Assembly: GCF_000027125.1 (NCBI RefSeq)
Contig: NC_017626.1
Length of the DNA: 64,000 nucleotides
Origin: Escherichia coli 042
GTDB taxonomy: Bacteria > Pseudomonadota > Gammaproteobacteria > Enterobacterales > Enterobacteriaceae
Reading direction: 5' to 3' (one strand)
In this document: positions 1 to 6,000 of the stretch, piece after piece
How positions within the stretch are numbered: position 1 is the stretch's first letter
How the letters are laid out: every line of letters begins with the position of its first letter
Program-made: the position numbers

Positions 1-3000
1 GTTTTTTGGAGTATCGCCCAAGAAAGTCGGCATTAAGATCAAACTTTGCCACAAAACTTCTTTCATCAGCACCTTTATCTAAATCGACAAAGACATCCAT
101 ATAATAAAGAACTTGCATATCAAACCTCTTAATTCTGTAATTACTTTAAATTATGACAAATAACTTTTGTGCTGAATTAGCTTTATGGTAGTTGACAATA
201 AAATAATTTTACATTGCAGATACATCAACACATAAAAATACTACGGGAAGAACAAAATATTGTAGTTTCAAATAATAAATTGGTGGGAATAACTCCGTCT
301 ATTAACTTCGCCATTAACATTAATTCAAATATTAATGTCATTTATTACAATTACTTTAAAGTTTATAACTGTTATCTTTCTCATATTTCTTTCTAATAGA
401 GTAAATTTCTGCAGCTAACTGGAAATCATCAACAGTATCAATATCGACCGTTGCTGTATTAGAAACATATAAATAAGGGTTTACGCCTATATGGTACTTA
501 TATGTTTCAATTGTTTCTCTTTTAAGTATAAAACAAGACCATAACACCTCATACCATGATGGTAAATTTTGTGAGACTTTATGCCAATACCCGAAAGAAT
601 AATTTAATGGGTTCCCTGATGCATCGATTAAATGTCCTTTATATTTTTTGACAGCAACCATAGAATCAAACTCATTCCTAATTGATTCCCATTCTTTTAT
701 CATGCAGGAGAATTCATTAAACAATGGGTTGGTCACTTGAACCCACATAATATCATCATTATCATTGCTATTTTTATTTATATCGTTAAGAATACCTCCA
801 ATTAATTCTGGTTGTTTAATCTCATTACCAGTTAATCTTTTATCTCGAAGTAAAAAGTTCACTCCTTTCTCATCACACATACGTTCAACTTCTTGAGCTT
901 CAGATGATATATATATTGTTTCTGGTTTAATACCAGAATTAAGGAGCTGTTCTATTTTTATATCAAACAAAGACATTCCATTATAAAATGGAATTATGTT
1001 TTTCTTTGGTACGCGTGTCGAGCACGTTTGGAGTGGGATAATAACTTTCATGTCTAATCCTTTTCGCTTTTTCTATTTAACTCTTAATAAGATTAATAAA
1101 TCTTTATATTCTGTTAATTGGTTATGCCAGATATTTTTAGACGAAGATATTTTGATCTTTTTTATACTCATCCACCCCTTCCTGAACATCCTCATAAAAA
1201 CCAACCGCATTATCGTCTTTAAACACAATCGCCACATCACAAAACTCTTTCAATGAATTCAAACTATGTGAAACCATTAAAAAACTAGATTCTTTATGCC
1301 TTTCTTTAAACAATTGAGCGCATTTTTCTTTAAACCTGGCATCACCGACTGCGGTTACTTCATCGACGATATAATAATCAAACTTAAATGCCATGCTTAA
1401 ACCAAAGCCTAAACGCGATCGCATACCAGATGAGTAAGTTTTAATCGGCATATCGAAGTACTTACCGAGTTCGGCAAATTCTTCGACAAACTCAATTTTC
1501 TCTTTCAGCTCTTCTTGCTTCGCGTATAACCGCGCAACAAATTTTACGTTTTCGCGTCCGGTTAAACTTCCCTGAAATCCACCTGCAAGGCCGACTGGCC
1601 ATGATATCGTTTTATTGGTGATGATCTTTCCACTGTCGGGGCGGTCAATGCCGCCAATCATTCTCAGTAACGTTGATTTACCCGCACCATTACGACCAAT
1701 AAAGGCAACACTTTTTCCTGAAGGAATTTCGAGGTTTAAATCCTTAAACACATAGTGTCGCCCCGTTGGCGTGCGATATGACTTCGTCAAATTCTCAATC
1801 TTAATCATGATGTCAGCATTGCCTCTTCACGCGTTCGGTATAACGCCAGACCGATGAACAGGGTGACCAGAGTGAACATTGCCAGGTAGTTCAGACTCAC
1901 GCCTTCGCTGATATAGCCAGGCATAACTGCCTCGCGGCTTAACTCCACGACATGCACTAATGGGTTCCAGAGTAGATATGACCAGTATTGCTTTGGAATC
2001 GAGTGTAGAGGGAACATGATGCAGGAGATGAAATACAGCGGCTTAAGCAGTATCGGCAGAACCTTTTGCATTTCGGGGAAAGTTTTACCAACGACCATGA
2101 ATATTAAACCGACGCCACATGAAAGAATGATCAGCAGGCTCCAGGTAGCCACAAGTTGTAAAAAATTTGTTATCTCGAAATATTCGCCTGCCATCCAGAC
2201 AATGAGCATAAGCAGAATATAAACAGCAACGTAAATCAGTGTCTCAAGCAGTGCGCGTGCAATGATCGTATCGATGGGTTTTACTGGTCGATAATTAAAC
2301 AGCCCCTGATTCGCTTCAATAGCACCTACAGAACGATTGCTGATACTGCTAAAGATAAAAAAGGGAATCAGGCCATTAAGTAAAAACACCGGGAATGAGA
2401 TGTCTGGCATCGTGCGGTGCATAATGTAACCAAAAATGCCCAACAGTATCAGCAAATGCGCAGAGGGTTCGAGAATCGCCCACAAATATCCCAGACGGAA
2501 CTTACCAAAGCGTGTTCGTATTTCTCGTAGAAATAATGCCTCTACGGTGACTTTCTGGACTTCAAATCCACTTCTTGCCATTTGATGATGTGATCCTAAT
2601 CTCTTCAGGTACGCTACCGCCCTTGGCTTAACAGCTACCAATACACTGGAGGTAATGCTTATTTGTAACTGGATAAAATTTACTCAGACGGTTTGACCTT
2701 TTTAATAGCCGCAAAAAATTTCAGCAGAAATTATTTCCGCAGGGATAAATAGATCTATTTCCGTCTCGTTTCTTCTAATCCATTCTTCAGGCATGAATGT
2801 ATTCGGTCTTCTGGTAATTTCAGAAAACTGGCCGTTTTAGAATGTAGAGTTAATTTCCCAGGAAATTATTTTTTGTTATTACTGTTAACTACTTGATTAT
2901 AATACCCCCATGGATTTTATGCGTAACAATACCTGCAATCTGTTTCAAACCAGAACGCACGCGATTGATTACCAATAAATTGTTCACCGAGAAACTATTT

Positions 3001-6000
3001 CCCTATTTAAAATTCACTCGTGTACTTCTTATTTATATCTACAGCCCCCTCTTTACAGTCATATTTGTGATTTATATCACATTTAAATGGTGTTATTTAA
3101 GTCGCATCAATAATCCCGAAGGTAATTATTTTCGTCGATTAAAATATACATCTTGATTATTTTGTGTATTTATTTTAACCAGTGTTACAACCAACACCAT
3201 CCCTCAGTAGATATACCTGAGCAGACATTTCTTAAAATCAACGAATAGTTTCACTGGAAATTATTATGCTTATTTGAAATTCCCTTTCTGATTATCTCCA
3301 GGAATTTTACTAATTTCCAAGCTACACAAAATACAGATCACACAAGAATTATCCTATATGTTTTGGCCTATCAATTGTTACTCAATGATTTATTGCAACT
3401 ATTAATAATCATAATGTGTCAAAACACTTAAGCAACTTTACAGTCTGAGAAAGGTGTCGATTAACGAAGGCTACATGGTGAAAAACAGGTTCCTTCAGTG
3501 TTACCGAATATTCCGTGGTGGTCTGGAGGGAGATAATTCTTGCTACATCGAAACTCAGCCCGGTGAGCGGGTTTGACAGTTCCGCACTCACCATTGGGCT
3601 AAGGGTTATCAGGTGGGGTTAAGGAAATGGCAATACCTACCCCCGTCCAAATTCCAGTCGCTGCACATTCACCATCCCAGGCTTCTCACCCGCACTGACA
3701 TCAATTTGTGTCACCCGCAGCGCATATTTTTCATCCAGTGCTTTTAACCAGTTCAGCAGGTCATTAAACACCACCGGATCTATCCAGACTTGAATATTCT
3801 CCCCACGCTCGGCTATCCGCTTGATGACCACCGAGTGCGCGGAAGCACTGTCACTGATGACCCGCGATACCTGCGCAGGCGTTGTTGTGGCAGATTTTCG
3901 CGCTGCAATAATATCCGGCGCGGCGTTCTTCAGTCGGGTGTTCATCGCCACCAGCTGCTGCAACATCGTCTCCTGTTGTTCTATCCGTTCGCTCAACGGC
4001 TGCCAGATGAGGACGTAATATCCGACGCTAAACAGGAACACTACCGCTGCCAGTAACATGCCTTTTTCACGCGGAGAACGCCCCGCCAGGTGTTGTGCCA
4101 GCCAGTGTTCGCCACGGCTTAACTGGCGTTCACGCCATTGCTGAAAATAGTGAATAAATTTATCGCGTAACATGTTATTTCCTCCGCAACGTTACGCCGC
4201 CGGAAACCGCATCACCCTCTTTCTGTAACGCGTCCTGTTGCACAACATAATCGGTTGCCAGTGCGCTACGCAGTTTGTCGAAGCTGGCAAAGTTCGCAGT
4301 CCGCAGTTGGAGGTGAAGCGTCTGGCGTTTTTGATCAAAGGTGAAACCACGCATTTCGATGTCGGTAAGTGACGCTGATTTCAGGGTACTGGCGATCGCT
4401 GACAATTCTGCGAGCAGCCGGGTATCGTCGGCCAGTGGGCGATATTTTTTCAGCGCCATCGTCACCTGCGAGCGTAAATTCACAATCCGCTTCTGCTCCG
4501 GGAATAGCGTTAAGAACTGTTTCTCCGCCTGGGTGCGGCTTTGCGCCACCTGTTCGCTGACGCTCCATAACGTCACGCCCCGTTCCACTGCCAGCGCAAC
4601 CAGAATCAGCAATATCGGCAGAATCATCACCCGCCAGCGCGCCCACTGTTTTCGGTAGCTGACACGAGGCTGCCACGGCCCTGTTAGCAGGTTCCCTTCC
4701 GGTTCGCCATAAGTGGTAATGGCGGGCAGAGCCGTAACGGTCAGGCGTTCGGCGTCTGCACCAGCCCATGCAGACAGTTCTTCCGGTGCAATGCCGACCA
4801 CAGTTAGTGAAATCGGTAAATTCTGCTCATTGAGCTGTGCGCGGAACATGACCGGAGCCAGCGCCCGCCCGGCGCTCCATCCCCGGCATTCATCGATGCG
4901 GCAGATAACCCGTTGCGCATCGCCAGCCATAAACCCACAAGGAATGGACATCCAGTCCGGCGCGACGGTAGCGCGGGTGATGCCGTTTGCCTGCAACCAC
5001 TGCGCAATGTTGCGCATATGCTGCTGGTGAATCACAGCTACGGTTGCCAGTTGCTGGTCGATTTTCAACGGGGCGAAATGCAGTTCATCGATATCCTGGT
5101 TCAGCTCTTCTTCCAGCAAGGCGGGCAGAATCGTCGGTATCTGCTTGCGGGGCACATCAGGCAGTTCAACCTGCCAGACGCTGATCCATTCGCCGGGAAT
5201 GTAGAGTCGAATCGCATCAGTTTGCAGCCATTGCTGGAGACGTTCGTCAGCAACGTCAGGCCAGATACCGTGCTCCACGTCGGGTGTATGGCGCTGCCAA
5301 CGGATGGGATCAGCGGCGCAAAGCGGGAAAAAAATCTCAAGCATGGAACTCACTCACTTTCTCCTGTCTGATGCCAGAGAACAGAAAAGTGTTGTGGGCC
5401 CATGCGGACAATTAACGAATTCATCGTCAGTTCAATCTCATTCACGGTGATATCTGAACGCAGCCAGAAGTAATTGCTGTCCACGCTCAGGACGGTTTTT
5501 AGCTGTTTTTTAGTACGATCATCGACGTCTGCAAGTAGCGGCTGAGCAAGAAACTGATCGACATCTTCCCAGCCCTTCGCCGGACGTTGTTGTAATAATG
5601 CCCGCGCCTGAACAGGGCTTAACCACGGGTCAAACAGCGCCTCAAGAATCACACTTTGCGTAACATCTAATGTATTGATGTTGATTTGCTGGCGGGCCAT
5701 CGGCAGCGCACAGACCAACGGTTTCAGTTTTTGATAAAGCCCGGCGTCCATTCCCTGTACCACGCGCATTTCGCTGATATCGGCCAGCGGCTGATTGGCA
5801 GCGTAGAACGGCACCGAACGGGCGAGATACTCGCTGTCTTCACGGCCCAGACGTGTCTGTATGCTGCGGTCCTCGTCAATAAACTCCCACAGGCTTTCAG
5901 CTATCAATTCGGCCCGATAAGCAGGCACATCGAGACGCGTGATCAGGGCAATCAACTGTTGCACCGCAAGCGGACGCGTCGCCGTCGTCGGCTGAGCGAG

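Follow-up and report, generated by a model that had tools for sequence, protein, structure and literature searches.

In the group 2 capsule clusters of Escherichia coli, the region 3 genes kpsM and kpsT are preceded by a leader with an ops element, located 28 bp before kpsM, that allows RfaH-dependent transcription to extend into region 2 (PMC8960920, a review by Aldawood and Roberts). This leader is transcribed from PR3, a promoter 741 bp ahead of the kpsM start codon with a −10 but no −35 element, and the large 5′ untranslated region (UTR) of kpsM moderates the transcription that reaches the gene (PMC8960920). RfaH dependence has been shown for the K5 and K1 capsules. Loss of the K1 capsule results from transposon insertion into the intergenic region that precedes kpsM (PMC5654933). 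In strain CFT073, the RfaH signal in chromatin immunoprecipitation sequencing (ChIP-seq) starts at the kps ops GGCGGTAGCATA (3529321–3529332), and RfaH remains bound throughout the kps unit; upon deletion of rfaH, RNA polymerase (RNAP) occupancy collapses downstream of ops, an effect that depends on H-NS/StpA, and kps polarity is Rho- and H-NS-dependent (PMC9765446). Here we analyzed a 64,000-nucleotide stretch of E. coli 042 (assembly GCF_000027125.1, contig NC_017626.1; hereafter the window), in which the 1055-nt interval 2582–3636 is bounded by the yghD/gspM stop codon (3637) and the kpsM ATG (A at 2581). We conclude with high confidence that this interval is the region 3 (kpsMT) regulatory region of an E. 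coli group 2 capsule cluster, with an RfaH/ops leader.

The interval occupies the same yghD–kpsM position as the region 3 leaders of K5, K1, K2/CFT073 and enteroaggregative E. coli (EAEC) 042, all of which carry ops 28 nt from the ATG. The exact 12-mer GGCGGTAGCGTA occurs once in the window, where ~0.15 matches with at most one mismatch are expected by chance, and its distance from the kpsM ATG is exactly 28 nt, which bears out the preliminary description of this DNA, where ops had been placed about 30 nt upstream of kpsM. It agrees with the consensus GGCGGTAGnnTG at 11 of 12 positions, including the invariant core GGCGGTAG and T11, and forms the 3′ end of a JUMPstart match that is full length (model positions 1–38 of 38). 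The leaders of rfaQ/waa, wzx/O-antigen, hlyCABD and tra resemble that of kps in carrying the core GGCGGTAG-nn-T on the non-template strand, within an untranslated leader that has the 39-nt JUMPstart consensus, whereas ~710 nt lie upstream of ops in the kps leader as compared with 27–135 nt in rfa, wzx and hly. The RfaH-bound ops of CFT073 aligns base for base with window 2621–2610, and its 5′ end is 40 nt away from the kpsM start, as in the window. The position, orientation and conservation of these elements, together with their identity to experimentally studied alleles, are direct observations. One further ops-like sequence, GGCGGTGGCGTA (55359–55370, minus strand), is the only other match within one mismatch in the window and carries one core mismatch (A7 to G).

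Conservation of ops on alignment, which the preliminary description had proposed as a check, was assessed with the yghD–kpsM interval from eleven other E. coli genomes, 80–99% identical to the window (12 alleles in all: CFT073 (K2), a BL21 derivative and ten others, of which L004 is the most divergent at ~80% overall). Both ops and JUMPstart are nearly invariant across the 12 alleles, including the one that is 80% identical overall. Variation in ops is confined to the degenerate ninth and tenth positions (GCGTA, as in the window, or GCATA, as in CFT073), and in the JUMPstart stem a single A/G change leaves the pairing intact (U-A or U-G). The last ~95 nt before kpsM, comprising JUMPstart, ops and the ribosome-binding region, are 94–97% identical in L004 and constitute, together with the post-yghD hairpin and the P1 region 3362–3283, the best-conserved blocks relative to that allele. 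Furthermore, a 101-nt query from JUMPstart to the first kpsM codons matched 1681 genomes, all at ≥90% identity and 764 of them at ≥99%. The nearest Shine–Dalgarno-like AGGA lies 12 nt from the kpsM ATG, a poor spacing. RfaH is established as aiding ribosome recruitment at its targets, and the poor AGGA–ATG spacing fits such aided recruitment.

The promoters described for the studied alleles can be placed in the interval at the published distances. In a 2025 study of EAEC 042, the −10 element of promoter P1 was corrupted by a −13G change introduced with the primer 'pkpsM P1- F', and a second promoter, P2, was mutated at +245 (245G) (PMC12360894). That primer carries 84 genomic nucleotides, which differ from window 3404→3321 solely by the substitution engineered at A3332 (−13 in that study), and +245 corresponds to window A3075, so that −13G and 245G both set +1 at 3319. 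The published PR3 start falls at 3322 in window coordinates (2581 + 741). The distance from P1 +1 to the kpsM ATG is thus 738–741 nt, and ops lies 698–701 nt downstream of +1 (3319–3322), within the transcribed leader, where transcription rests on published work with identical sequence. A transcription start immediately next to kpsM, which the preliminary description had named as the finding that would speak against it, is contradicted by the published starts ~740 and ~480 nt upstream. Comparison of the alleles reveals that the P1 stretch 3362–3323 is 100% identical in allele L003 and 88% identical in L004, the 80%-identity allele, and that 3362–3283 is 88–90% identical in L004.

In EAEC 042, a CRP site, TGTGATTTATATCACA, was located at −492.5 from the kpsM start by ChIP-seq and bandshift, and CRP represses P2 and moderates P1 (PMC12360894). 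The CRP site of the window is centered at 3073.5, which corresponds to −492.5 from the kpsM start, and is identical to that of EAEC 042 in both sequence and position. Its TGTGA-N6-TCACA core occurs once in the 64-kb window (0.07 expected), the site lies ~250 bp downstream of P1 with the P2 −10 element embedded in it, and the 12 alleles differ in its central bases but not in its half-sites. The window thus shares with EAEC 042 the 738–741-nt leader, as judged by the P1 −10 element, the CRP site at −492.5 and the 84-nt P1 primer sequence.

Footprints of H-NS were reported at −135 to −21 and +141 to +219 (PMC8960920), and the upstream one maps to ~3457–3343 in the window. The composition around the start, at 28–33% GC, is consistent with binding of H-NS/SlyA on both sides of it. 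Consensus scans of the leader for SlyA, H-NS and RcsAB sites returned matches at the level of shuffled sequences, none of them convincing, and scans for Fur and FNR gave counts above the shuffle means that stem from loose 6- and 2-mismatch matches, again none convincing. A consensus promoter scan yielded only TTGGAA-18-GATAAT (3320–3291), with fewer matches than in shuffles, and this is not the mapped promoter. The hexamers GATAAT (3353–3348) and TATAAT (2901–2896) were likewise rejected as the published promoter, since they do not fit the published distances. The latter, a perfect −10 element on the minus strand ~315 nt upstream of kpsM, is kept in 12 of 12 alleles; it has no recognizable −35 element and is not among the published promoters P1 and P2.

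The proposal of the preliminary description that RfaH suppresses termination into kpsMT and region 2 is supported by the exact, conserved ops/JUMPstart and by experiments published for the homologous leader; the binding of proteins, the points of initiation and the requirement for RfaH at this locus would follow those of the studied alleles. RNAP would initiate at PR3/P1 (−10 TATTTT at 3333–3328, no good −35, +1 at ~3319–3322) and, more weakly, at P2, whose −10 element is buried in the consensus CRP site (3081–3066), downstream of a ~190-nt, 48%-GC region with a strong conserved hairpin in which gsp transcription would end. It would then transcribe an AT-rich, C-poor untranslated leader of ~740 nt, the DNA of which is expected to be the target of H-NS/SlyA for temperature control and of CRP for nutritional control. 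At ops (2621–2610) in JUMPstart, 28 nt before kpsM, RNAP would pause, and RfaH would bind the exposed non-template strand and stay with the polymerase. The RfaH-modified polymerase may resist Rho- and H-NS-promoted termination and read through kpsMT into region 2, which is serotype-specific and very AT-rich. In this regard, no intrinsic terminator-like sites were found in kpsMT and the start of region 2 (0 versus 1.7 expected), which fits factor-dependent polarity.

Four points weigh against this assignment. The twelfth base of ops is A instead of the consensus G found in other RfaH-dependent leaders, and this A is common to all kps alleles examined; the RfaH-bound kps ops of CFT073 likewise ends in A. 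The start site varies by source, being 3322 from the 741-bp figure, 3319 in the EAEC 042 numbering and 3309 from CFT073, where the transcription-unit start at 3530138 in RNA sequencing (RNA-seq) aligns to window 3309. The post-yghD hairpin has no good U-tract in the window allele, so that its insulation of kps from gsp read-through is putative. Finally, the window itself reveals neither capsule expression in the strain nor rfaH, which is located elsewhere on the chromosome.

The kps leader controls the K capsule, a major virulence factor of extraintestinal E. coli. With its ops it is a well-characterized, already known system, a textbook case of RfaH-dependent suppression of operon polarity, to which its occurrence here adds nothing new. 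The value for annotation is that a 1-kb interval devoid of annotated features in the 30 records listed can carry labels for the promoter, CRP site, 5′ UTR and JUMPstart/ops (Table 1), and that the relation of gsp to kps should be recorded as tandem, not convergent. A palindromic repeat family and two leader length classes remain as residual curiosities.

Table 1. Features of the yghD–kpsM interval and its flanking genes, in window coordinates
Feature	Coordinates	Strand	Remarks
ops element GGCGGTAGCGTA	2610–2621	−	Exact 12-mer; RfaH recruitment/pause site by homology; kpsM sense (non-template) strand
JUMPstart	2610–2648	−	Stem-loop UUGGU...GCCAA, then ops; Rfam RF01707, 58.5 bits (gathering 35), E = 4e-12
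kpsM untranslated leader	2582–3322	−	~740 nt; 34% GC; C/G = 0.72; small open reading frames (ORFs) not conserved
PR3/P1 promoter zone	3323–3443	−	28% GC; corresponds to the upstream H-NS/SlyA footprint region of the literature
P1 (PR3) −10 hexamer TATTTT	3328–3333	−	Placed by the EAEC 042 mutation primer and the expected distance from the 741-bp start
kpsMT/region 2 transcription start	3319–3322	−	3319 in 042 numbering; 3322 from the 741-bp figure
CRP site TGTGATTTATATCACA	3066–3081	.	Perfect TGTGA-N6-TCACA core; P2 −10 TATAAA (3076–3071, minus) inside
Stable hairpin	3554–3603	−	34 nt after the yghD stop; RNA fold −27.7 kcal/mol, z = −4.94, 0/200 shuffles as stable
C-rich, G-poor untranslated stretch	3461–3580	−	28–30% C versus 16–20% G; between the hairpin and the kps promoter
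Terminator-like leader hairpin and T-run TGAAATTTTT	2740–2724	−	~75 nt before JUMPstart
Palindromic motif copy 1 AATAATTTCCAGTGAAACTA	3246–3265	−	Repeat family D1; position weight matrix (PWM) match
Palindromic motif copy 2 AATAATTACCTTCGGGATTA	3111–3130	−	Inside the published downstream H-NS footprint +141 to +219 (PMC8960920)
Palindromic motif copy 3	2851–2870	−	Perfect 8+2+8 palindrome TAATTTCC-TG-GGAAATTA; ~117-nt indel immediately upstream (2872/2871)
Palindromic motif copy 4	2716–2735	−	Overlaps the terminator-like hairpin 2740–2724 and T-run TGAAATTTTT
yghD (gspM)	3637–4173	−	Last gene of the type II secretion system (gsp) operon; 178 aa; NCBIfam NF007274 YghD, 408.8 bits (cutoff 352)
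kpsM	1805–2581	−	Capsule ATP-binding cassette (ABC) exporter permease; 258-aa ORF; best NCBIfam match KpsM NF050053, E = 2.7e-55
kpsT	1137–1808	−	Capsule ABC exporter ATPase; 223-aa ORF with ABC ATPase matches; 4-nt overlap with kpsM

The gspG, H, I, J, K, L and M/yghD ORFs form a contiguous, overlapping minus-strand run from 3637 to 8343, and kpsM and kpsT share this strand with the gsp ORFs in the window as well as in annotated genomes, five of which display the single-strand order gspE...gspL–yghD–spacer–kpsM–kpsT. Because gsp and kps are co-directional, the gsp 3′ end and the kps promoter follow each other in tandem rather than meeting head-on. This co-directional arrangement would also permit substantial transcription of kpsMT and region 2 from the gsp promoter, passing through the hairpin and gaining RfaH at ops, so that the two systems would be co-regulated; ops would serve any polymerase arriving from upstream, and the U-tract after the yghD hairpin (GAGUUUC) is weak in the window allele. 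We consider such a contribution improbable, since reporter fusions retain little kpsM promoter activity when the P1 and P2 −10 elements are mutated jointly (PMC12360894), sigma-70 ChIP peaks in CFT073 coincide with the start predicted upstream of ops (PMC9765446), and sequence type 131 (ST131) strains are reported to have lost the adjacent gsp operon. In addition, the hairpin is both very stable (−27.7 kcal/mol) and conserved, and the C-rich untranslated stretch that follows it would favor Rho.

The hairpin itself is probably the 3′ end or a terminator structure of the gsp operon; its tail, GAGUUUC, is a weak U-tract, and a consensus terminator scan did not call it. Both divergent versions of the surrounding segment keep its inner stem, GGTGAGTG/CTCACC. 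In the L003 version the fold reaches −18.6 kcal/mol (z = −4.13) and is followed six nucleotides after the stem by AUAUUUUUG, and in L004 the hairpin stretch is 97% identical while its flanks are ~70% identical. The stretch 3461–3580 is the sole part of the spacer in which sense-strand C exceeds G by ~10%, and it is possible, judging from composition, that it acts as a Rho loading zone insulating kps from gsp read-through. We infer that gsp transcription terminates after yghD, by either an intrinsic or a Rho-dependent route. The ~190-nt yghD-proximal segment as a whole (3636–3444) exists in two versions that are 36–66% identical except for two poorly aligned stretches and have only the hairpin stem in common. 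In allele L004, yghD is extended to 579 bp.

The preliminary description had characterized the interval as an AT-rich, ~1-kb spacer lacking a convincing ORF, and this holds: the bulk of it (~860 nt, about 33% GC) has a GC content of 28–34%, with 28–33% at 2649–3443, and its ORFs are interrupted across alleles. The 193 nt next to yghD (3444–3636) reach 48% GC; the gsp genes stand at 50–60%, kpsM at 41–49% and region 2 at 24–32%. The term spacer is apt insofar as the interval is non-coding but fails as a description of a mere spacer, since ~740 nt of it constitute the kpsMT 5′ leader with mapped promoters and a CRP site. That the interval instead encodes a small protein or small RNA (sRNA) as its real function appears highly improbable. 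Mechanically called ORFs of 87 aa (2893–3156, plus strand) and 61 aa (3409–3594, minus strand) are present, and pairing of RyhB with the final 150 nt of the leader has been suggested (PMC11988350), but all seven spacer ORFs of at least 30 aa, on either strand, are broken by a stop codon or frameshift in 4–11 of the 11 other alleles, and the two longest have no NCBIfam match, so that small protein ORFs were rejected. Moreover, among the 30 records listed, none annotates a feature within the spacer, one record's yghD overlapping the match, and an Rfam scan of the spacer at E ≤ 1 returned no structured RNA other than JUMPstart and a sub-threshold CRISPR-DR63 match. The spacer is found in 1715 of 5426 complete E. 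coli genomes.

The picture of a convergence zone, in which the gsp and kps 3′ ends meet head-on and the spacer serves as a bidirectional termination buffer, is scarcely credible: the gsp ORFs from 3637 to at least 8343, kpsM and kpsT all lie on the minus strand, as they do in the five annotated genomes, the kps promoter fires away from gsp, and the 'two convergent promoters' of the general kps literature that might suggest it are PR1 and PR3, directed toward one another from either side of region 2 (PMC8960920). The preliminary description accordingly errs in having the gsp operon converge on the spacer; gsp lies upstream of kpsMT on the same strand. Its view that two acquired systems meet here is reasonable, as homology with K-12 ends exactly at the yghD stop codon, and two separately acquired loci would abut at the spacer. 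The K-12 yghD coding sequence is collinear with that of the window up to the stop codon, beyond which the window contains unrelated, kps-associated DNA, whereas in K-12 the tRNA-Phe gene pheV follows yghD at 148 bp. No tRNA genes were found in the 64-kb window, and a tRNA or att remnant at the island border was rejected on this ground and because K-12 homology ends at the yghD stop.

In the annotated homologous loci, yghD bears that name, kpsM is annotated as 'ABC transporter permease' and kpsT as 'ABC transporter ATP-binding protein'. The KpsM match scores 188 bits, below the NCBIfam KpsM equivalog cutoff of 300, which explains why the RefSeq label is merely 'ABC transporter permease'. The start of region 2 (1–1136) includes a cytidylyltransferase-like ORF of 231 aa (356–1051, minus strand). 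The region 2 of the window represents a rare capsule type, matched in 13 of 5426 complete genomes and in three of these at ≥99%. Strain 144, the best genome match for the spacer, carries a different region 2.

Within the kps leader, no windows with more C than G were found. C-poor RNA, judged by the composition of rut sites, should disfavor Rho loading, and the composition of the leader should thus disfavor loading of Rho before RfaH is acquired. The hairpin at 2740–2724 was rejected as an intrinsic terminator, given its weak fold (−10.7 kcal/mol, z = −1.56) and a T-run that is not conserved among the alleles; its stem is kept in the most divergent allele by a compensatory change, and the hairpin may play a part in the moderation reported for the UTR. 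The alleles differ further in leader length. The window represents the short allele, whereas CFT073 and four other alleles carry ~117 extra nucleotides at 2872/2871, bounded by a fifth copy of the palindromic motif described below. This insert is present in 419 genomes as against 1715 with the spacer, about a quarter. In the CFT073 locus (L014) it occupies positions 683–798; together with its flanks it folds into a long stem (z = −2.85), and CCAGAACGC within it is complementary to GCGTTCTGG at window 2958–2950. The CFT073 spacer is 86% identical to that of the window when the indel is counted as mismatch. Published UTR lengths are 846 nt for CFT073 by RNA-seq (PMC9765446) and 741 nt for K5 (PMC8960920), a difference that the ~117-nt insert accounts for.

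A 20-nt palindromic motif, in the sense orientation AATAATTTCC-NN-GGAAATTA, is present, according to a repeat search, in four leader copies spaced 135, 260 and 135 nt apart. GGAAAT/ATTTCC ranks first among 6-mers by enrichment (7 observed versus 0.97 expected, z = 6.4, reached in 0 of 500 shuffles); the 6-mer survey was unbiased, but the motif was first spotted by eye and no family-wise correction was applied. No PWM matches were found outside the leader in the 64-kb window, nor in the 26 kb of the CFT073 kps cluster including PR1, and sharing of the motif with PR1 was rejected on the lack of matches in the CFT073 PR1 region. Several other identities were rejected as well. The weak, sub-threshold Rfam match to CRISPR-DR63 at 2851–2870 is a chance match to the palindrome, an RNA hairpin is weak (−3.4 kcal/mol, z = 0.16), and as to a relic of tandem ~135-nt duplications, Tandem Repeats Finder found none and the inter-motif units are dissimilar (z ≤ 2.8). 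The NagC/Mlc operator requires an invariant TT-N9-AA at ±5 and 6 (PMC4288165), and the motif, with its TTT-N6-AAA geometry (TAATTTCC-N2-GGAAATTA), does not fit this spacing. Nor did the consensus scans for SlyA, H-NS, Fur, FNR and RcsAB produce a convincing match to the motif. We tentatively put forward, while regarding it as unlikely, that the copies serve as operators or nucleation sites for some DNA-binding regulator so far unconnected with kps, in which case four- and five-copy alleles would form two capsule expression classes; a candidate for the binding factor would be MprA, LrhA or another factor that influences PR3 with no demonstrated binding.

Elsewhere in the window, Rfam matches at gathering level were obtained for the C0719 sRNA (22357–22578, 297 bits) and for two naRNA4/CssrE repeat elements (47812–47888 and 58858–58928).

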